Positions 7,881 through 14,062 of a stretch of DNA of 27,463 nucleotides are shown here, in pieces (position 1 is the first letter of the stretch; the number at the start of each line of letters is the position of its first letter). The position numbers and the translations under genes were made by a program. The stretch is from a virus. Taxonomy: Duplodnaviria; Heunggongvirae; Uroviricota; Caudoviricetes. The notes beneath the pieces were generated by a model, which was not told where the DNA came from, did no database searches, and saw only the letters and a list, made by a program, of their open reading frames with translations. Location: the IMG/VR virus record IMGVR_UViG_2545824714_000008; one strand, given 5' to 3'.

Positions 7881-10103
7881 TTGGCTGTTCAATTCGCTTA
7901 TCCGTGGAACGTCCCACGGTCGGCAATCTCCAGCCCATACCTTACTTATGAGCAACAGCATCGCCGCGACCGTATGTTCGCGGCTTTGCTGCATGCAAAA
8001 AAGGGGCTTTCTCTCCAGCCCGACTGCGTGCGGTTAGATGTTTATCGCACTGCTGCGGTGCTGGAACAAAATCAGGGTAGTAAACGAGCCAATGCATTTT
8101 TAATCAGCTTCTGCAAAAAGGCATTGCCGCGTCTTGAACTGGTCGCAAAAAAATACGAATGCGCTGGTATCAACAGCAAGGTATCAACCGCTGTTTTTGG
8201 AAGTCATTTTGATACTCAGCAAATGCAATATCTGTCGTCACGCATGGTTAATATGGTCGCCCGATATAACCGTCTCCCGGACATGTCGCGCGCTGATGTT
8301 GACCTGTTGGCCGCTGATATTGCTAATTTCATTCGTGGTGAACTTGCCAACATTAATGACCACGGATTCGGCGAGCTTAAAACGCTGTACACCTGGTATA
8401 TTCGTGCTGGCTTTATTTCCCTCCAATTCAACGTTATCCCACCACATTGGGAGCGGGTTGAAAAAAAATATGTCGGTGCGGATGAAATCGCACCGGCTAT
8501 CGCCAAAATGTTTAACGATGGGTGGTGGCGCGGTCGTTTGCGCCGTGTAGCAGCTACGTGGCGCGAACACCTGCAAATTGCAGTCGGCAACGTCAGTAAG
8601 AAAAAAAACACTTACGCGAGTAAAAACTGCGTGACTGACTGGCGTGAACAAAAGCGCCGCACTCGTGAATTTCTCAAAGGTCTGGATCTCGAAGACGAAG
8701 ACGGCAACCGTATCAGCCTAATTGAAAAATATGATGGCTCAGTTGCTAACCCTGCGATTCGCCGCTGTGAGCTCATGACCCGCATTCGTGGGTTTGAAAA
8801 CATCTGTAATGAGCTCGGTTATGTCGGTGAGTTTTACACTCTAACCGCGCCGTCAAAATATCACGCCACGACTAAAGCCGGTTACCGTAACAGCAAATGG
8901 AGCGGTGCCAGCCCGGCTGACACGCAAAACTATCTAACCGGTATCTGGGCGCGTATCCGTGCCAAACTACATCGGGAAGATGTCCGTATTTTCGGTATTC
9001 GTGTCGCCGAGCCCCATCACGACGGCACTCCACACTGGCACATGCTGATGTTCATGCTGCCGGAAGATGTTGAATATGTTCGCTCCATCGTCCGTAAATA
9101 CGCATGGAAAGAAGACCGCCACGAACTGAAAAGCGATAAATCCCAAAAAGCACGTTTCCACGCGGAGTCCATTGACCCGGAGAAAGGCAGCGCAACCGGC
9201 TATGTTGCTAAATACATTTCAAAAAATATCGACGGTTATGCTCTCGATGGTGAAACCGATGATGAAAGCGGTGAGCTGCTGAAAGAGACAGCCCCCGCCG
9301 TTTCAGCATGGGCTGCGCGCTGGCACATCCGTCAGTTTCAGTTTATTGGTGGTGCGCCGGTGACGGTTTACCGTGAGTTGCGTCGCCTCGCTGATACCGA
9401 AACCGCGCACGGTCTGAGCGTTGAGTTTGCCGCCGTCCATGATGCCGCCGACGCTGGTGACTGGGCTGGTTATGTTAATGCTCAGGGTGGGCCGTTTGTC
9501 CGTCGCGATGATTTACAGGTGCGCACACTGTATGAACCGCGTACCGAGCTTAATCAGTACGGTGAGGAAACGGTATGTATTAAGGGGGTCTACGATTCCT
9601 CCATAGGTGCAGGAAGCCCGATTTTAACCCGGCTCACTCAGTGGAAGATTGTTCCGAAGCGTGCTGTTGATTTGGCCGTTGACCTTCAGGACGGCAAAGC
9701 CGTCCCTCGGAGTTCTGTCAATAACTGTACGGGAAGCGAAAGCGATCCACCGATACTGGATTTAACAAAACCACTGAGTCGGCGTGAAAGACGAGAATTG
9801 ACCAACCTACTCAGGAAGCAAAAGCCAGCAGCACGGCGAAAATTCATCCACGGAACGGATGAGCAAAACGCAGCTATAGCTAAAACTATCGATGAGATAC
9901 ATCTGACAACCGGCATTAATATCAGCCGGGGCGAAGCCCTGCACCTGATGGCCGGTGGTAAAAGTTGTTTTGATGGTAAATGGCTACGCGGAACGGCCAA
10001 AGGAGAAATATTTTCCGCAGCACCATCGCATGAGGCTAAAGCTCGGAAAATCCTTAATCGTGTTGCGGCGATGGCTGAAGCATCAAAACCAATACATGAG
10101 TAA
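7881..10103 (+). CDS. A: Rolling-circle replication initiation protein (P2 gpA family)
   Basis: 740 aa containing EPHHDGTPHWHMLMF and GYVAKYISKNIDGYALDG, matching P2 A motifs as recalled. TTG start with GGGGGT upstream. Confidence 0.9.
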   Translation: MAVQFAYPWNVPRSAISSPYLTYEQQHRRDRMFAALLHAKKGLSLQPDCVRLDVYRTAAVLEQNQGSKRANAFLISFCKKALPRLELVAKKYECAGINSKVSTAVFGSHFDTQQMQYLSSRMVNMVARYNRLPDMSRADVDLLAADIANFIRGELANINDHGFGELKTLYTWYIRAGFISLQFNVIPPHWERVEKKYVGADEIAPAIAKMFNDGWWRGRLRRVAATWREHLQIAVGNVSKKKNTYASKNCVTDWREQKRRTREFLKGLDLEDEDGNRISLIEKYDGSVANPAIRRCELMTRIRGFENICNELGYVGEFYTLTAPSKYHATTKAGYRNSKWSGASPADTQNYLTGIWARIRAKLHREDVRIFGIRVAEPHHDGTPHWHMLMFMLPEDVEYVRSIVRKYAWKEDRHELKSDKSQKARFHAESIDPEKGSATGYVAKYISKNIDGYALDGETDDESGELLKETAPAVSAWAARWHIRQFQFIGGAPVTVYRELRRLADTETAHGLSVEFAAVHDAADAGDWAGYVNAQGGPFVRRDDLQVRTLYEPRTELNQYGEETVCIKGVYDSSIGAGSPILTRLTQWKIVPKRAVDLAVDLQDGKAVPRSSVNNCTGSESDPPILDLTKPLSRRERRELTNLLRKQKPAARRKFIHGTDEQNAAIAKTIDEIHLTTGINISRGEALHLMAGGKSCFDGKWLRGTAKGEIFSAAPSHEAKARKILNRVAAMAEASKPIHE

Positions 10104-10177
10104 TTCATATCCATATCATGCACATACAGCAATCGCTCTATTCGTTTTTTTTCTTCCCATCTTTTGCCAATACGTGC

Positions 10178-10197
10178 TACTGTATAAATATACAGTA
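10178..10197 (+). promoter_or_regulatory. LexA (SOS) box overlapping a promoter, upstream of a small-ORF operon
   Basis: TACTGTATAAATATACAGTA is a perfect CTGT-N8-ACAG box with an AT-rich spacer, about 20 bp upstream of the ATG at 10217. Confidence 0.8.
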
Positions 10198-10216: not shown

Positions 10217-10399
10217 ATGGTTGGCGAACATTTCAGCCGAACGCAGCAAAAGTGGGCTTGTGTGCAATTTATTGCCGAGGTATCTCTGATTGCAAACTGC
10301 AAGCCATCAGACTTAAAGCTCGCGCTCACTCTCATTGCAGACCTAGCAAACAGCGAGAATAACGAAACCGAAGATGATAATTTTTATAAGGCTGATTAG
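10217..10399 (+). CDS. Small SOS-regulated protein (candidate Tum-like antirepressor function)
   Basis: 60-aa ORF with GGGAGGG upstream, directly downstream of the LexA box. Confidence 0.55.
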   Translation: MVGEHFSRTQQKWACVQFIAEVSLIANCKPSDLKLALTLIADLANSENNETEDDNFYKAD

Positions 10400-10402
10400 A
10401 TT

Positions 10403-10636
10403 ATGAGAATCAATATCACGTTGGATAAAGAGCAAAAAATTAGTCAGGCAACATTGGATGCACTTGAGGCTGAACTGTACCGCAATCTTCAACCTATTTA
10501 CCCAAAGACTGCTATCCGAATTCGCAAGGGCTCCGCTAATGGCGTTGAACTAAGCGGTTTGAAACTGGACGAAGATAAAAAACGAGTAATGGAAATCATG
10601 CAGCAGGTATGGGAGGACGATAGCTGGCTGCATTAA
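10403..10636 (+). CDS. Small hypothetical phage protein
   Basis: 77-aa ORF, 3 nt after the preceding stop, followed immediately by repeat copy 1. Confidence 0.55.
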   Translation: MRINITLDKEQKISQATLDALEAELYRNLQPIYPKTAIRIRKGSANGVELSGLKLDEDKKRVMEIMQQVWEDDSWLH

Positions 10637-10638
10637 CA

Positions 10639-10707
10639 AACGCCGCCGGTGCTGAAACTTGCTTTCAGTGCTGGCGGGGTTGAACAACTCGCACCGCGAG
10701 GCGCTAG
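10639..10707 (+). repeat. 69-bp structured repeat, copy 1 (imperfect dyad CCGCC..CTGAAA / TTTCAG..GGCGG)
   Basis: About 86% identical to 11044..11112 and starts 2 nt after a stop codon. Confidence 0.7.
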
Positions 10708-10831
10708 TTCTTCCTCTCAAAGTTTCTCGATGTTTTATTGGTTACACACCAGTGATGAATGGGACGTTACCTTAGCGGGTTTTATAGTGGCGCTGTGGCA
10801 GCGCTAAATAAAATTCATTGAGGGCGATAAT

Positions 10832-11041
10832 ATGCATCGACTACCGGGCGAAATTCCGCAGCACAAAACTAAAAGCATCAAACTGATGGCCATCGTTCAT
10901 CGTCTGCAGCAGATAATGGTCAATGAGAATTTGACACCCGCCGAGCTGGTCGGGTGTGCCGAAATAGTCAGGGATAATTACGGCAAGCTGGATAGCATCA
11001 GCAAGCCGACACATTACTCACCGCCACCACGTCGACCATAG
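10832..11041 (+). CDS. Small hypothetical phage protein
   Basis: 69-aa ORF with GAGGG upstream, followed immediately by repeat copy 2. Confidence 0.55.
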   Translation: MHRLPGEIPQHKTKSIKLMAIVHRLQQIMVNENLTPAELVGCAEIVRDNYGKLDSISKPTHYSPPPRRP

Positions 11042-11043
11042 AT

Positions 11044-11112
11044 AACGCCGCCGGAGCTGAAACTCGCTTTCAGGTCTGGCGGGGTTGAACAACGAGCTAC
11101 GCGAGGCGTTAG
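11044..11112 (+). repeat. 69-bp structured repeat, copy 2
   Basis: Same dyad as copy 1 and starts 2 nt after the stop codon. Confidence 0.7.
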
Positions 11113-11174
11113 CCGGTCATAGCGTCGCAAATACTTCAACCGTCTGCTGGTTAAATAATTCGAGGTTTTTGGAC

Positions 11175-11369
11175 ATGCAAAATCCCCTTTCATCGAAAAA
11201 TGACCCGTTTGCCGATTGGGCAAAGAATCTGACTTTAATGGCTTTAAATAACGACCTGAGCTCTCGCGAGGTGGAAAGCTACACCGCAAAAATGGTCGGG
11301 CAGGCCGGTAAAGATGAGCTATCAGTCGTTATCAAACACCTGTTAAATCACATCAGAATGCGCAAATAA
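11175..11369 (+). CDS. Small hypothetical phage protein (ATG 11175; the ORF opens at TTG 11085 inside repeat 2)
   Basis: GAGG about 9 nt before ATG 11175, giving 64 aa. Confidence 0.45.
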   Translation: MQNPLSSKNDPFADWAKNLTLMALNNDLSSREVESYTAKMVGQAGKDELSVVIKHLLNHIRMRK

Positions 11370-11385
11370 GAGGAACTATATAAAT

Positions 11386-11487
11386 ATGTTATCTCTCGTT
11401 TATGAAAATCCGTGGACGACGATTTTTCTGATGATTGTTGCCAGCATGTGCCTCAACAGTGTTATTGGCGCATTGCGCGGCCATTAA
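11386..11487 (+). CDS. 33-aa hydrophobic peptide (MLSLVYENPWTTIFLMIVASMCLNSVIGALRGH)
   Basis: AAGAGGAA about 10 nt upstream of the ATG, one predicted transmembrane-like segment, followed by a strong terminator. Below the 60-aa cutoff of the ORF track. Confidence 0.4.
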   Translation: MLSLVYENPWTTIFLMIVASMCLNSVIGALRGH

Positions 11488-11506
11488 TCGCGACAAAACC
11501 AGACTA

Positions 11507-11535
11507 AAACCGGCACCCTGAATGCCGGTTTTTTT
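11507..11535 (+). terminator. Rho-independent terminator ending the early/SOS operon
   Basis: 9-bp stem AAACCGGCA / TGCCGGTTT with loop CCCTGAA, followed by a T7 run. Confidence 0.8.
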
Positions 11536-11695
11536 ATGCCATTTTTCCGCGAATTTCCCGTTTTTTAGTCGTGCATGCATCAGGTGCATGGTTTTGCATG
11601 CGTCAGTCTTGCCCGTTCTGTCCGTGCGCCGCCAGAGCTAGCGCGGATCCAGAGTTGTCATGCAACTGCATTAAAACCGCCCCATAAAGCGGGCA

Positions 11696-11714
11696 GGCGT
11701 GGCGGGGAAAGCAT
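11696..11714. other. cos site (19-nt cohesive-end sequence of 186/P2 type)
   Basis: GGCGTGGCGGGGAAAGCAT matches the 186 cohesive end as I recall it (P2: GGCGAGGCGGGGAAAGCAC). Lies between the replication and portal sides as expected in a prophage. Confidence 0.7.
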
Positions 11715-11933
11715 TGCGCGCCAGCAGTGATGCGTAATAATAAAAATTATCCTCTGAGCGCGTCGTGATGGCGCTGTCGTGGTCGCTGCTGGTTCGTTGG
11801 TGGTCGAGTGTGTTCGTGCGCGTGAGACGCATCTGATGCGTGATGGTGGTGTGCATGGAAAAGCCACCAGGAGCAGCGGCTTTACAGGAGTGGCAGGATT
11901 CAAACTGCTAATTATGTTTCTACTATGATTAAA

Positions 11934-12938
11934 CTAATTTACATGTATGTAGAGTTCACCGTCGCCAGACCAATCGGGACACTCTAAAACAAGCCCAAAC
12001 TGCTTGAATATTTCATCAATGATTATTGTTATCTCCCGAAAATCACCAAAACCTGTAATGTGCTGGTCATTAAACTTCCCATAAAGATTCTGAAAAGCAA
12101 TGCCTAATTCTGATAATTGATATCTTATCTTTGAGTTGGATAGTGTAAGGGATAGCTTTGGATCGTATTCTTTAATATTGATGTTTAGAGAATGGACATA
12201 ACCCATCGCATAAGCATAAGAGTTGATGATTAGCCTGATACGTTTTTTTACTTCAAGATACATGTCATTCAGAGAAATATTACCGTACTTATAACCCCAG
12301 ATGAGTTTTTCAATCTCGTCAGATACTTCATTTACAACAGTGTCAAGATTCTCTAAAAATAAATCGACAGTTTCTTGAGGGGCAGACCCCGAAGACATGT
12401 AATTAGCGAGATATTCAGACCATGCACGCGTGGCTGAGATAAGAAGCGCGCTACCATACTCGTTGACTGTAAAGTTTTGGGCTAAGCATGTTAGTAAGTT
12501 TTTTTCATGTACGTGCACTAATTCATGGTGAATGCGATGGATGACTGCGAGGTATCCTTCTTCTTTCAGTTTTAAGAAGCTACCATCATTGAAAAGCTCA
12601 ACAAAAAAATCAATCGATAGCACAAGGGTATATTCTTCATATAGCCCATCATTGCCAATTTTTGTTACTAACTGCCCGACGGCTGCGCCCTGTTTGCTAT
12701 TGGTAAATGAACTAGGGGATTTGTGTTGGTAAGAGGATGTTACCTTTTGAAGAGCTTCACTGAAGTTATAGGAAACAATCACGCATTTTAATTTGGAGAT
12801 ATCAAGATTGAGATTCTTTGTTAAAGCTCGGATAGCTTCTAGTGTGAAATTACCGATATTATTTGCTTCTTGCTCAGTAGCGAAACCTTCGAGGGTTATT
12901 TTAAAATCAGTTTCCAAAATATTAATCTCCGCGCCCAT
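11934..12938 (-). CDS. Orphan 334-aa protein in a low-GC insertion between cos and the portal gene (candidate accessory/defence gene)
   Basis: Uninterrupted ORF in AT-rich DNA, co-oriented with portal and terminase. Contains an HHELVH (HExxH-like) stretch and no obvious membrane segments. No Shine-Dalgarno evident. Confidence 0.65.
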   Translation of the reverse strand: MGAEINILETDFKITLEGFATEQEANNIGNFTLEAIRALTKNLNLDISKLKCVIVSYNFSEALQKVTSSYQHKSPSSFTNSKQGAAVGQLVTKIGNDGLYEEYTLVLSIDFFVELFNDGSFLKLKEEGYLAVIHRIHHELVHVHEKNLLTCLAQNFTVNEYGSALLISATRAWSEYLANYMSSGSAPQETVDLFLENLDTVVNEVSDEIEKLIWGYKYGNISLNDMYLEVKKRIRLIINSYAYAMGYVHSLNINIKEYDPKLSLTLSNSKIRYQLSELGIAFQNLYGKFNDQHITGFGDFREITIIIDEIFKQFGLVLECPDWSGDGELYIHVN

Positions 12939-13015: not shown

Positions 13016-14062
13016 TTATTCTGGGTTGTCGAGGGTGTACTCTTTGAATCTGATGACCTCCATGCCGAGCCAGTCATTTACCTCCCTGAACCTGTCCTGT
13101 AGCGGCGACAGCTCGTTGCGCACAAATACCTTTGCCACCTTCTCAACATCACCGAGTGAACCGATATTCTCGGGCTTGCCGCCCATGAGCTGGAACGGTA
13201 CGCGGTGCGCGTCCATCAGATCGGCGGCACTGGCCTTCTTGATGTTGAAAAAGTCATCCTTTGTGGCGACCTCGCTCAGTGGCACGATTTTGATGCCGTC
13301 CGGTTTTCCGCCGGGAGCGTAGAAAAACAGGTTCTTAAAGTTGCCGAGCCCTTTTGAGTTGCGCATCGCCTCGCGCAGCGATTCGACGTCGGTCGCGCTC
13401 TGCGCCGGGTCAGTCACATACATGATGTAGCCTGCGTGCGCGCCGTTCTGATAATACTTGCGGCGGAACAGCGTCGCGGATTCATTCAGCCAAGCGGAAT
13501 TAAGCGCGCTGAGATATTCCGGCAGACCGTAAATCTCCTGATTAATGTCGGGCTCCAGCAGGTGAAACACGGTATCAGGCGCGAACTCGTGCGGCTGGGT
13601 GAAGTTTTCCACAAACCAGAAAATCGAATCGTCGACTCCGCGTCGGGGGTATTTGGCTGGCGAGGCCAGCAGTTTGATTAACTGGCCGGTGACGCTGTGG
13701 CGCTGCTCAAGAAAGGCGTTACCGAACACCAGATAATCGAGCGCAAAGCGGCTGAAATCCTGACGGGATAACAACGGGTGCGGAATGTAGGTGCTCGCGA
13801 GCACGTTACGCTTAACATAAATTGGCGAGCTGTGATGCACGGCAGAGCGCAGGCTCTTTGCCAGCCCTGAGAAGCTGACCGGCGGCTCGTACCATTTGCC
13901 GTTACTGATGCACTCGACGTAATCCAGAATGTCGCGCTTATCGAGTACCGGCACCGGCTCGCCGAAGGTGAACGCTGTCGTTTTTGGCGGTGCGCTGGCG
14001 GTCAGTTGTTGTGGTTTGCTGGCCTTTTGTGCGTTGGCTTTACGGGATTTTTGTTTACCCAT
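13016..14062 (-). CDS. Q: Portal protein (P2 gpQ family)
   Basis: 348 aa (P2 Q is about 344 aa), adjacent to and co-oriented with the large terminase and next to cos. Confidence 0.9.
   Translation of the reverse strand: MGKQKSRKANAQKASKPQQLTASAPPKTTAFTFGEPVPVLDKRDILDYVECISNGKWYEPPVSFSGLAKSLRSAVHHSSPIYVKRNVLASTYIPHPLLSRQDFSRFALDYLVFGNAFLEQRHSVTGQLIKLLASPAKYPRRGVDDSIFWFVENFTQPHEFAPDTVFHLLEPDINQEIYGLPEYLSALNSAWLNESATLFRRKYYQNGAHAGYIMYVTDPAQSATDVESLREAMRNSKGLGNFKNLFFYAPGGKPDGIKIVPLSEVATKDDFFNIKKASAADLMDAHRVPFQLMGGKPENIGSLGDVEKVAKVFVRNELSPLQDRFREVNDWLGMEVIRFKEYTLDNPE

Follow-up and report, generated by a model that had tools for sequence, protein, structure and literature searches.

The type I toxins TisB and DinQ and the Caulobacter division inhibitor SidA are small peptides of the inner membrane that are induced by the SOS response, and HK97 gp15 and T4 Imm are small membrane proteins that exclude superinfecting phages. 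In phage 186, terminator t95b follows the LexA-controlled tum operon and stands directly after orf97 and the J element; Orf97 is annotated with the remark "expression from plasmid blocks 186 infection". P2-like phages possess a gpA-cos-gpQ hotspot of accessory genes that include old, tin, and retrons (Rousset et al. 2022, PMC9122126), and according to a 2026 study hotspots of this kind hold many small recombination remnants (PMC13586616).

The window analyzed here, a stretch of 27,463 nucleotides, is a 186-like (Peduoviridae) prophage. Its plus strand contains a 33-codon open reading frame (ORF; positions 11386 to 11487, stop codon included) which is predicted to encode a single-pass membrane peptide and is the last frame before a t95b-type terminator, approximately 200 bp from cos and within the gpA-gpQ accessory (defence) hotspot. 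The terminator shares with t95b of phage 186 a homologous hairpin and T run, the distance to cos, and the place after a LexA-controlled tum operon; whereas in 186 it directly follows orf97 and J, here a gene for a 64-residue protein (64-aa gene) and the 33-codon ORF lie between J and the terminator. With TisB, DinQ, and SidA the peptide has in common a length of about 30 residues, one hydrophobic helix, and, by prediction, expression that depends on LexA cleavage, but it has neither sequence similarity to these proteins nor an antisense RNA partner, and its ORF would close a phage operon as the last cistron rather than form a stand-alone locus. Like HK97 gp15 and T4 Imm it is small, prophage-borne, and a predicted membrane protein, and its slot is filled in 186 by orf97, a gene with an exclusion phenotype; the likeness to Orf97 is one of position only, homology to the exclusion proteins is absent, and expression of the 33-residue peptide is predicted upon SOS induction rather than constitutively in the lysogen. 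As with the accessory genes and morons of the P2-like hotspot (PMC9122126), the ORF lies inside the hotspot, varies in presence, and adjoins swappable cargo, but it is part of a conserved block and has no PADLOC match. Our comparison of sequences leans toward the ORF being a real gene that the phages can do without; it would encode a 33-residue peptide spanning the inner membrane once and belong to an orphan family found solely in 186/P2-like prophages of Enterobacteriaceae.

Genetic setting of the ORF

A p95-type SOS promoter region on the plus strand (10164 to 10197) combines a -35-like TTGCCA (10164 to 10169) with a LexA box; read directly from the sequence, the latter is a perfect site, CTGTATAAATATACAG, at 10180 to 10195, 5' of the tum homologue, and its location is that of p95 and the LexA site in the phage 186 annotation. 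The tum homologue (10217 to 10636, plus strand) is split into an antirepressor-like ORF of 60 residues (10217 to 10399) and a DinI-family ORF of 77 residues (10403 to 10636). The split tum matches 186 Tum with 38% identity over 132 residues (BLASTP, E = 1e-32), and the 77-residue ORF matches Pfam DinI with E = 7e-24; a split tum/dinI layout has been reported for Fels-2 and PSP3 (PMC3121763). Further 3' lie a 69-residue ORF (phrog_11386; 10832 to 11041, plus strand), which forms a separate small cassette, and the 64-aa gene (phrog_2454; 11175 to 11369, plus strand), the usual upstream partner of the 33-codon ORF, which completes the order. In three loci (L015, L024, and L042), the 69-aa gene is found immediately 5' of J and the terminator. 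No intrinsic terminator was detected by scanning between 10200 and 11386, an interval in which two J hairpins sit, and neither a scan nor inspection by eye disclosed a promoter belonging to the block of the 64-aa gene and the ORF. Where relatives carry a divergent 143-aa gene, the block must use another promoter. A 26-nt similarity to the p95/LexA region before the ORF (repeat D2) was considered as a LexA half-site and dismissed as chance, since the CTG/CAG arms are missing and relatives do not share it.

The J element is a conserved RNA hairpin repeat with covarying pairs that separates gene cassettes. It occurs here as two direct repeats on the plus strand, copy 1 (10631 to 10724) at the 3' end of the tum/dinI cassette and copy 2 at 11037 to 11122; homology to phage Midge begins at 11118, just within the 3' end of copy 2. 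The element was found with nhmmer in 67 of 81 loci, and its 18-bp hairpin contains 9 compensatory pairs, a result matched by none of 500 shuffles. Known RNA families gave no match at the gathering threshold in the whole window.

The intrinsic terminator (11506 to 11535, both strands) matches t95b of phage 186. Its arms, AAAACCGGCA and TGCCGGTTTT, enclose the 7-nt loop CCCTGAA; the stem consists of six G+C-rich pairs and an A-U extension, and the T7 run occupies 11529 to 11535. The predicted folding energy is -14.2 kcal/mol for the plus strand (z = -2.9, equaled by 3 of 200 shuffles) and -21.4 kcal/mol for the minus strand (z = -3.5). Since both strands fold, the structure may also halt leftward transcription from the Q side; on the plus strand it was missed by a consensus scanner because the T residues are absorbed into the stem. 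The six G+C-rich core pairs are kept paired in 32 to 34 of 35 sequences. Identity to t95b amounts to 85% over 55 nt, the blastn match falls on the "terminator" feature of U32222 (30436 to 30463), and the flanks align on to cos. Judged by these alignments, the terminator is real, homologous to t95b, and predicted to end the tum operon. The preliminary description had spoken of a strong terminator closing the early region: the fold of hairpin and T run and the homology to t95b bear out a terminator, and the terminal place is correct as well, but more precisely the site closes the LexA-controlled tum/SOS operon and lies about 160 bp short of cos. The adjoining conserved cos-proximal region (11536 to 11714) ends with the 19-nt sequence GGCGTGGCGGGGAAAGCAT (11696 to 11714), which we take to be the 186-type cohesive end; in the linear records of 186 and SEN1, the last nucleotide corresponds to position 11695 of the window. 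Because phage 186 packages its genome while lacking the ORF DNA, cos function does not need that DNA.

The 64-aa gene and the ORF form a conserved block at the cos-proximal edge of the hotspot and are not variable cargo; as swappable cargo nearby, a Klebsiella phage carries a retron reverse transcriptase, and both FSL SP-004 and Kosakonia carry Fic genes. SEN1-type phages have the 64-aa gene precisely deleted and retain the Shine-Dalgarno motif and the ORF. In locus L036, a diverged homologue of the 64-aa gene is followed directly by the terminator and the ORF DNA is missing, as the ORF also is from 186 and from Yersinia phages. With regard to the hallmarks of phage morons, a terminator is present, presence varies among relatives, and no promoter was found in the scan. 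AlphaFold modelled the 64-aa protein as three helices (pLDDT 75); no sequence or structural match was obtained in the PDB, and the three-helix-bundle model was uninformative as a route to a role via the neighbour.

Conservation and decay of the frame

The elements listed in the preliminary description, i.e., the ATG, the upstream motif, the 33-residue peptide, and the hairpin with its T7 run, are all present in the sequence. Translation from the ATG at 11386 to 11388 yields MLSLVYENPWTTIFLMIVASMCLNSVIGALRGH. The Shine-Dalgarno-like AAGAGGAA (11368 to 11375, plus strand; AAAAGGA in most relatives) overlaps with its first bases the TAA stop codon of the 64-aa gene (11367 to 11369), and its GAGG core stops 12 nt 5' of the ATG, a rather long spacing; the motif is mutated in L030, where the ORF is intact, and in L076 and L079, where it is broken. 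Residues 12 to 30 form a hydrophobic core with a Kyte-Doolittle 19-residue mean of 2.09 (usual threshold, 1.6), in agreement with the one membrane helix claimed earlier. Among the 87 ATG-initiated ORFs of 25 to 45 residues in the window, 6 exceed 1.6 and 2, the present one included, reach 2.09; hydrophobic small ORFs arise by chance, and hydrophobicity alone is not rare.

When loci were recovered with the terminator and cos, which lie beyond the ORF, as the anchor, the ORF was intact, with the same start and stop, in 42 of 46, and it is likewise intact in six more diverged E. coli genomes, Edwardsiella, Lelliottia, and E. bugandensis. Exactly 33 codons are kept in about 50 loci (E. coli, Salmonella, Klebsiella, Citrobacter, Edwardsiella, and Lelliottia; at least seven genera). 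The 24 unique intact sequences, a set partly defined after the fact, contain 30 synonymous and 37 nonsynonymous substitutions and no stops, the best result of the six frames; under the null, 20.3 ± 3.6 of the changes would be synonymous (P = 0.0075). No other frame has a pairwise pN/pS as low as the 0.37 of this one, and the probability that 68 random substitutions leave start, stop, and frame unharmed is 0.008. Substitutions in the helix are conservative among relatives, the stop codon is exchanged for another (TAA to TGA) in L059 and L081, and one variant (P0047) has an in-frame deletion of a single codon. Taken as a whole, the substitution pattern supports the view that the ORF behaves as coding sequence in most relatives and gives moderate support for purifying selection on amino acids, itself of moderate strength (pN/pS of about 0.4 over 33 codons).

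Nucleotide diversity is 0.089 in the ORF, 0.142 in the 64-aa gene, 0.158 between terminator and cos, and 0.329 in the spacer between stop codon and terminator, the ORF value being below that of every flank except the terminator; gaps are present in the spacer and absent from the ORF. By codon position (1, 2, and 3), the diversity of the ORF is 0.098, 0.046, and 0.124. At third positions the neighbouring gene is twice as diverse (0.245), which leaves part of the conservation unexplained by coding, and the first 36 nt are nearly invariant, silent sites included. This extra conservation could stem from recent spread or from nucleotide-level constraint.

In eight lineages the ORF is broken, and six of these retain an intact 64-aa gene, so that the ORF is at best dispensable. 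The Cronobacter copy has a stop at W10; that of the E. cloacae complex has ACG in place of the ATG, stops, and 61% identity; in Kosakonia the start and the Shine-Dalgarno motif are lost and two stops are present; and in C. freundii loss of the start is combined with a frameshift. A K. michiganensis-like contig likewise has a destroyed copy, and the ATG is lost in Kluyvera, where the locus resembles a decayed remnant. The 64-aa gene is intact in all six, and the portal gene persists in the five other than Kluyvera (Cronobacter, E. cloacae complex, Kosakonia, K. michiganensis-like, and C. freundii). In the lineage of L049, L058, and L062, decay of the ORF goes together with truncation of the 64-aa gene 5' of it. 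Broken copies carry multiple lesions and evolve neutrally, with a synonymous fraction that sits at the null value of 0.30, versus 0.45 in intact copies (Fisher P = 0.02 to 0.03). Conservation of the frame in relatives, proposed as a check in the preliminary description, accordingly has a divided outcome: the frame is kept, with a synonymous excess, in most relatives, but it is broken in Cronobacter, Kluyvera, the E. cloacae complex, and others.

Such losses are also what would be seen if the ORF were no functional gene but a frame left open by chance in a conserved 3' untranslated tail, that of the 64-aa gene or of the SOS operon, its apparent preservation in E. coli, Salmonella, and Klebsiella being due to the youth of the copies, to block recombination with terminator and cos, or to some other nucleotide-level constraint. 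Besides the eight broken lineages, six with the 64-aa gene intact, this reading is favoured by the unusual conservation of third codon positions, with the near-invariance of the first 36 nt at silent sites, by our own estimate that disabling lesions over all lineages roughly equal the neutral prediction, by the orphan status of the peptide, the long Shine-Dalgarno spacing, and the failure of PGAP ever to call the ORF, and by the many small recombination remnants in such hotspots (PMC13586616). We nevertheless regard a chance frame as rather unlikely. It is at odds with the synonymous excess, the absence of stops from the intact set, and the superiority of the sense frame over the other five, with the contrast in diversity between the indel-free ORF and the spacer just past its stop, with the shift of broken copies to a neutral pattern, and with the existence of the stop-for-stop change and the in-frame codon deletion; moreover, neither RNA structure nor an antisense gene accounts for the constraint, and packaging of 186 shows that cos does not require the ORF.

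Constraint at the RNA level would take the form of a leader peptide with an attenuator, a small RNA derived from the 3' untranslated region, or an mRNA-stabilizing structure, the ORF being incidental or only regulatory. A short ORF 19 nt 5' of an intrinsic terminator does recall attenuators, the single-sequence fold has z = -2.6, and Rfam returned a weak match to Thr_leader as the only one under the threshold (22.8 bits, E = 0.21), but this score is far under the gathering score of 55 and the match is driven by the terminator. There is no plus-strand gene downstream, where cos and convergent genes follow, and an attenuator was rejected because nothing is there to be regulated; in addition, no promoter appeared in the scan, the covariation term is +0.76 (RNAalifold), and no ORF pair shows a compensatory change. 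We judge action at the RNA level to be very unlikely. A hairpin within the ORF (11397 to 11418) was likewise discarded as a candidate structure: it lacks compensatory changes, and a silent change breaks its closing pair in 10 of 35 sequences.

The real gene might also be sought on the opposite strand, where PGAP and some phage annotators call minus-strand ORFs of 53 to 108 residues ("hypothetical protein", "aI protein"), as annotated in Midge, SW9, and several E. coli and other genomes. Their ends and frames, however, vary among close relatives (lower ends at 11389, 11400, 11462, 11490, 11534, or 11589; upper ends from 11561 to 11737), they leave the peptide region uncovered in the Klebsiella lineage and SW9, and they pass through the terminator hairpin. 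With pN/pS of 0.54 to 1.76, the three antisense frames are worse than the sense frame. An antisense gene was therefore rejected on the grounds of its inconsistent ends and frame and its pN/pS, and we see next to no chance of it.

Candidate roles of the peptide

If the ORF is a gene, DNA damage would lead to LexA cleavage and thereby switch on a polycistronic RNA ending at the terminator. The peptide would rely for translation on its own Shine-Dalgarno motif, perhaps with coupling to termination at the 64-aa gene, 16 nt further 5', and would be inserted with its short invariant N-terminal tail (LxYENxWTT) outside and its C-terminal Arg inside; the helix might then pack against another membrane helix, a small/polar face being formed by S20-N24-G28. 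Our best guess is that it modulates, as an accessory factor, some inner-membrane protein of the host, for example in superinfection exclusion or in controlling division or the energy state at induction, and we think a free-standing pore-forming toxin less likely than such a modulator.

A membrane-damaging toxin in the manner of the SOS-induced type I toxins TisB and DinQ, which would depolarize the inner membrane when the operon fires, represents a sub-case of the genuine-gene reading. Size, the single hydrophobic helix, and the LexA-controlled context resemble these two proteins, and frequent loss in some hosts would suit a costly gene. This role, however, appears improbable: searches of Pfam, NCBIfam, PADLOC, and PHROG and an exhaustive profile search gave no similarity to any toxin family, a long structured 5' leader is missing, the ORF being a presumptive last cistron with an ordinary Shine-Dalgarno motif, and the helix as read from the sequence lacks the charged, amphipathic pattern of TisB. 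No minus-strand promoter-like site for an antisense RNA was found between 11386 and 11700, a consensus scan being weak evidence on this point, and the hairpin would halt leftward transcripts short of the ORF. More broadly, one could picture a LexA-triggered 33-residue membrane peptide, perhaps from a young gene, that manipulates the host envelope at prophage induction by blocking division like SidA or dissipating the membrane potential like TisB, favouring the lytic burst or aborting competitors; to this scenario we assign only a small chance.

As part of the same scenario, the gene could have arisen recently within the defence hotspot, out of the untranslated 3' tail of the 64-aa gene, an origin that would explain both the missing distant homologues and the repeated losses. 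If the dispensable gene favoured here is real, its product would be another small membrane protein skipped by standard annotation (PGAP), one that is common among 186/P2-like prophages of E. coli, Salmonella, and Klebsiella and linked to the SOS response. Because the gene lies on the conserved border of the prophage defence hotspot that has been studied best, its role could have a bearing on the timing of induction or the exclusion of rivals.

Database records and annotation

Searches of Pfam, PHROG, NCBIfam, and PADLOC with the peptide returned no significant match, and an exhaustive profile search among 1.84 billion representatives found no distant homologues; one protein homologue search was run with the 55-residue SEN1 form as the query. 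The possibility that the ORF is a remnant of a longer gene was discarded, as the exhaustive profile search returned just its own family and frameshifted variants. The peptide string is absent from the literature searched, in which no ribosome-profiling study of a carrier strain and no expression, proteomic, or phenotypic data were found.

The peptide had been called unannotated and thought to be missed by length cutoffs. RefSeq/PGAP indeed has no CDS at the ORF for the identical sequence of E. coli CX21, but the exact peptide is deposited on more than 1000 public contigs as "hypothetical/uncharacterised protein", so the supposed omission applies to PGAP only, other pipelines having deposited the ORF many times. 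Over a 261-nt query spanning this part of the window, E. coli CX21 and TW10598 are 100% identical to it. What is already known is thus an orphan "hypothetical protein" in databases, with moderate evolutionary support. Phage records with an annotated CDS are QBQ71544.1 of Klebsiella phage ST147-VIM1phi7.1 and SEN1_42 of Salmonella phage SEN1, the latter with its start misplaced. The corresponding corrections would be to add the 33-aa CDS, to drop the antisense ORFs, and to amend the start of SEN1_42.

Setting of the 33-codon frame

The DNA under study is a 186-like (Eganvirus/Peduoviridae) prophage, in which replication gene A (7881-10103, assigned from the A genes annotated in relatives) is followed by a perfect LexA box, CTGTATAAATATACAG, at 10180-10195, lying ahead of a split tum gene. 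Alignment to Tum of phage 186 identifies a 60-aa ORF (10217-10399) as the N-terminal, antirepressor half of Tum, and a family match together with the Tum alignment identifies a 77-aa DinI-family ORF (10403-10636) as the C-terminal half; jointly, the two ORFs show 38% identity to 186 Tum (E = 1e-32). While 186 Tum is a fused protein of 146 aa, the tum gene of the window is divided by a single stop codon, and an identical split has been reported for Fels-2 and PSP3 (PMC3121763). A 69-aa ORF (10832-11041) lies between split tum and a 64-aa ORF of phrog_2454 (11175-11369, plus strand), and the 33-aa ORF (11386-11487, plus strand), read as MLSLVYENPWTTIFLMIVASMCLNSVIGALRGH, is the final frame ahead of a t95b-type terminator.

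The ATG at 11386, the ribosome-binding motif, the peptide, and the hairpin with its T7 run, all listed in the preliminary description, were recovered, and their coordinates are correct. The SD motif AAGAGGAA (11368-11375, plus strand) overlaps the TAA stop codon of the upstream gene; the distance from its GAGG core to the ATG, 12 nt, is long yet usable. The mean Kyte-Doolittle hydropathy is 2.09 over residues 12 to 30; on its own this is weak support, since the usual threshold of 1.6 is passed by 6 of the 87 small ATG ORFs of the window.

The terminator, AAAACCGGCA-CCCTGAA-TGCCGGTTTT plus the T7 run (11506-11535), folds on both strands, with -14.2 kcal/mol (z = -2.9) on the plus strand and -21.4 kcal/mol (z = -3.5) on the minus strand. 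It aligns with the phage 186 feature annotated "t95b; p95 transcript terminator" and belongs to the t95b class, showing the class features that were tested. The LexA box heads the predicted transcription unit of the 33-aa ORF, and no intrinsic terminators were detected between the LexA-box promoter and the ORF. Given the LexA box and the t95b alignment, what was initially described as the end of the early region is better specified as the point where the LexA-controlled tum operon ends. The DNA just 5' of the ORF start (11362-11387) shares 77% identity over 26 nt with the p95/LexA-box region (10166-10191); this LexA-like copy is without the CTG/CAG arms and is not kept in relatives, and probably arose by chance.

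Coding signature and its limits

Relatives were collected from viral and metagenome collections with an anchor composed of the terminator and a conserved cos-proximal motif, chosen to avoid selecting on the peptide. Including loci fetched earlier, 67 loci matched, 46 of which hold DNA homologous to the 33-aa ORF; in 42 of these 46 the ORF is precisely 33 codons long and begins and ends at the same positions. The ORF is also intact in six further diverged E. coli genomes. Parsimony analysis of the 24 unique intact sequences yielded 30 synonymous, 37 nonsynonymous, and no stop-creating events, the other five frames being worse, and random relocation of the same mutations gave an expectation of 20.3 ± 3.6 synonymous events (P = 0.0075). 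Pairwise pN/pS is 0.37 in the sense frame, the lowest among the six frames. The chance of 68 random substitutions sparing start, stop, and frame is 0.008, in a set that was itself defined as intact. Nucleotide diversity is 0.089 in the ORF, 0.142 in the 64-aa gene, 0.158 from terminator to cos, and 0.329 in the 19-nt spacer after the ORF stop, which also contains indels, these being absent from the ORF. Across codon positions 1, 2, and 3 of the ORF, diversity is 0.098, 0.046, and 0.124, respectively. Further signs of coding are a TAA-to-TGA stop swap and a variant with an in-frame deletion of one codon. Within the helix, only conservative exchanges are seen (I/V, L/M, A/T, and, at residue 21, M/C/V); LxYENxWTT in the N-tail does not vary, and residues S20-N24-G28 make up a small/polar helix face.

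At third codon positions, the ORF is half as diverse as the neighboring 64-aa gene, and its first 36 nt are nearly invariant, so that coding does not explain all of the conservation. RNA structure other than the terminator was not supported in the ORF region, and no Rfam family reached the gathering threshold. The only plausible ORF hairpin is broken by a silent codon-11 change in 10 of 35 sequences, a subthreshold Thr_leader match in Rfam is driven by the terminator, and an attenuator would be without a downstream plus-strand gene to control.

PGAP and phage annotators have called an opposite-strand gene across the region. These antisense "hypothetical proteins" of 53 to 108 aa lie at 11389-11589 (minus strand), across the terminator and cos-proximal DNA, with matching calls in Midge, SW9 ("aI protein"), and the relative loci L005-L007, L069, and L077-L079. 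In the Klebsiella lineage and in SW9, none of them spans the stretch that encodes the peptide, and their frame and ends vary among close relatives, so these calls look spurious. In E. coli CE0021a (L084), one of the six diverged E. coli genomes, the IS21-family element ISEc12 is located about 8 nt past the ORF stop; the terminator and rightward DNA are replaced, and the ORF is intact.

In more distant hosts, surveyed with the 64-aa protein as a second, independent anchor, the frame conservation proposed as a check gave a mixed picture. The ORF is intact in Edwardsiella, Lelliottia, and E. bugandensis, but broken in Cronobacter (W10 to stop), Kluyvera (ATG lost, the locus resembling a remnant), the E. 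cloacae complex (stops and an ATG-to-ACG change, at 61% identity), Kosakonia (two stops, and neither ATG nor SD retained), a K. michiganensis-like contig (ATG to AAG and a deletion), and C. freundii (a frameshift and ATG to AGG). Every host of this survey retains an intact 64-aa gene. In one metagenome lineage (L049/L058/L062), the ORF has lost its stop, is frameshifted, and encodes a Gln within the helix, the 64-aa gene also being truncated, and L060 carries frameshifts in both genes at an assembly coverage of just 4.8x. In L036, a diverged 64-aa homologue directly abuts the terminator and the ORF DNA is absent; the ORF is likewise absent from phage 186 and Yersinia phages. In broken copies the synonymous fraction is 0.30, equal to the null and thus neutral, versus 0.45 in intact copies (Fisher P = 0.02 to 0.03), which in these sequence comparisons fits a gene that is either retained or lost. 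The broken copies indicate that the gene is dispensable. We consider it unlikely that the ORF is non-functional, and lean towards a real, selected but dispensable small membrane protein.

Family status and putative role

The peptide, initially described as unannotated, has no CDS call by RefSeq/PGAP in identical or related E. coli sequences; public collections, however, contain it and its variants on more than 1000 contigs, labelled "hypothetical/uncharacterised protein". It is an annotated CDS in Klebsiella phage ST147-VIM1phi7.1 and forms the C-terminal 33 residues of SEN1_42 of Salmonella phage SEN1. Pfam and NCBIfam gave no significant match, and PHROG and PADLOC none. A word-indexed search returned about 15 clusters, 33 aa being the length in nearly all, and a profile search run exhaustively against 1.84 billion representatives found only the peptide's own family plus three frameshifted or extended variants; the peptide is an orphan, without sign of coming from a larger protein.

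In SEN1 (L003, 1419-1622), L045, and L046, the 64-aa gene is precisely deleted, from the end of a repeated hairpin element, J, to the SD of the 33-aa ORF. This deletion has the microhomology ATA and retains the SD and the ORF, suggesting that the peptide is not strictly dependent on the 64-aa partner. Very probably, the 55-aa protein annotated as SEN1_42 is this 33-aa peptide, its start having been wrongly extended into J sequence.

The ORF would be cotranscribed with the upstream unit in an SOS-dependent manner, and its translation would begin at the SD motif, perhaps in coupling with the stop of the 64-aa gene, which lies 16 nt upstream. The peptide is predicted to insert with its N terminus outside and C terminus inside, and may act by helix-helix packing, its helix carrying the S20-N24-G28 face. 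In size, hydrophobicity, and predicted regulation, it resembles the SOS-induced membrane peptides TisB, DinQ, and SidA as well as small prophage exclusion proteins. Even for a real gene, toxin action appears improbable: the testable hallmarks of a type I toxin, an antisense partner and a family match, are missing, and no promoter-like site for an antisense RNA was found on the minus strand. The initial interpretation is supported in part, for a coding frame of a predicted membrane peptide but not for a toxin-like character. Rather than a pore-forming toxin, we favor a putative accessory role in which the peptide modulates a host membrane protein, and with it exclusion, division, or the energy state at induction. 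Among the small membrane proteins encoded by phages, a broad class, the peptide is best regarded as a new orphan member.

J element and neighboring cargo

J, of about 90 nt, occurs at 10631-10724 and 11037-11122 of the window and at 2406-2482 of phage 186 (L008). Of 81 fetched loci, 67 contain it at cassette boundaries, without exception in plus sense, and in the SOS operon every small gene cassette has it at the 3' end. Its core is an 18-bp hairpin, AAC-GCCGCCGGTGCTGAAA[CTYGC]TTTCAGTGCTGGCGG-GTT, 96% paired and with many G-U pairs; compensatory double changes affect 9 of the 18 pairs, equalled in 0 of 500 shuffles, so that the hairpin is an RNA-level structure. J has no T-run 3' of the hairpin, is absent from Rfam, and is unannotated in 186. 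It could stabilize mRNA, serve as a processing site, or act as a linker through which cassettes are swapped by recombination, and may merit separate study more than the 33-aa ORF does.

The 64-aa gene and the 33-aa ORF form a modular block persisting beside changing cargo. In the window this cargo is dinI/69-aa; Midge and most others carry a divergent 143-aa gene, the Klebsiella phage encodes a retron reverse transcriptase, and FSL SP-004 and Kosakonia have Fic genes. A minus-strand gene of 143 to 145 aa is found in most relatives (L001, L005-L007, L009, and L070-L080; 126 aa in L078), its start codon overlapping the 64-aa gene start; for it, the Midge annotators recorded HHpred similarity to T7 gp5.5/5.7. 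In these relatives, the promoter of the block must lie inside that gene. The window keeps only a remnant of about 19 codons (11118-11176, minus strand), J and the 69-aa cassette standing in its place.

Rightward, cos was placed at 11696-11714 because the counterpart of 11695 is the last position of the linear 186 and SEN1 records. The gpA-cos-gpQ interval is a published P2-like hotspot of anti-phage genes (PMC9122126), and within it, between cos and portal gene Q (13016-14062, minus strand; portal annotated in relatives), lies an orphan gene of 334 aa (11934-12938, minus strand). It matches phrog_11743, of unknown function, with no significant match in Pfam, NCBIfam, or PADLOC. In E. coli CX21, otherwise identical here, a different 66-aa gene replaces it in the same slot. 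Unrelated ORFs with strongly hydrophobic stretches adjoin the same terminator in L019 and L039 (66 aa) and in L034 (119 aa); membrane proteins may therefore be recurrent cargo in that slot of 186-like phages.
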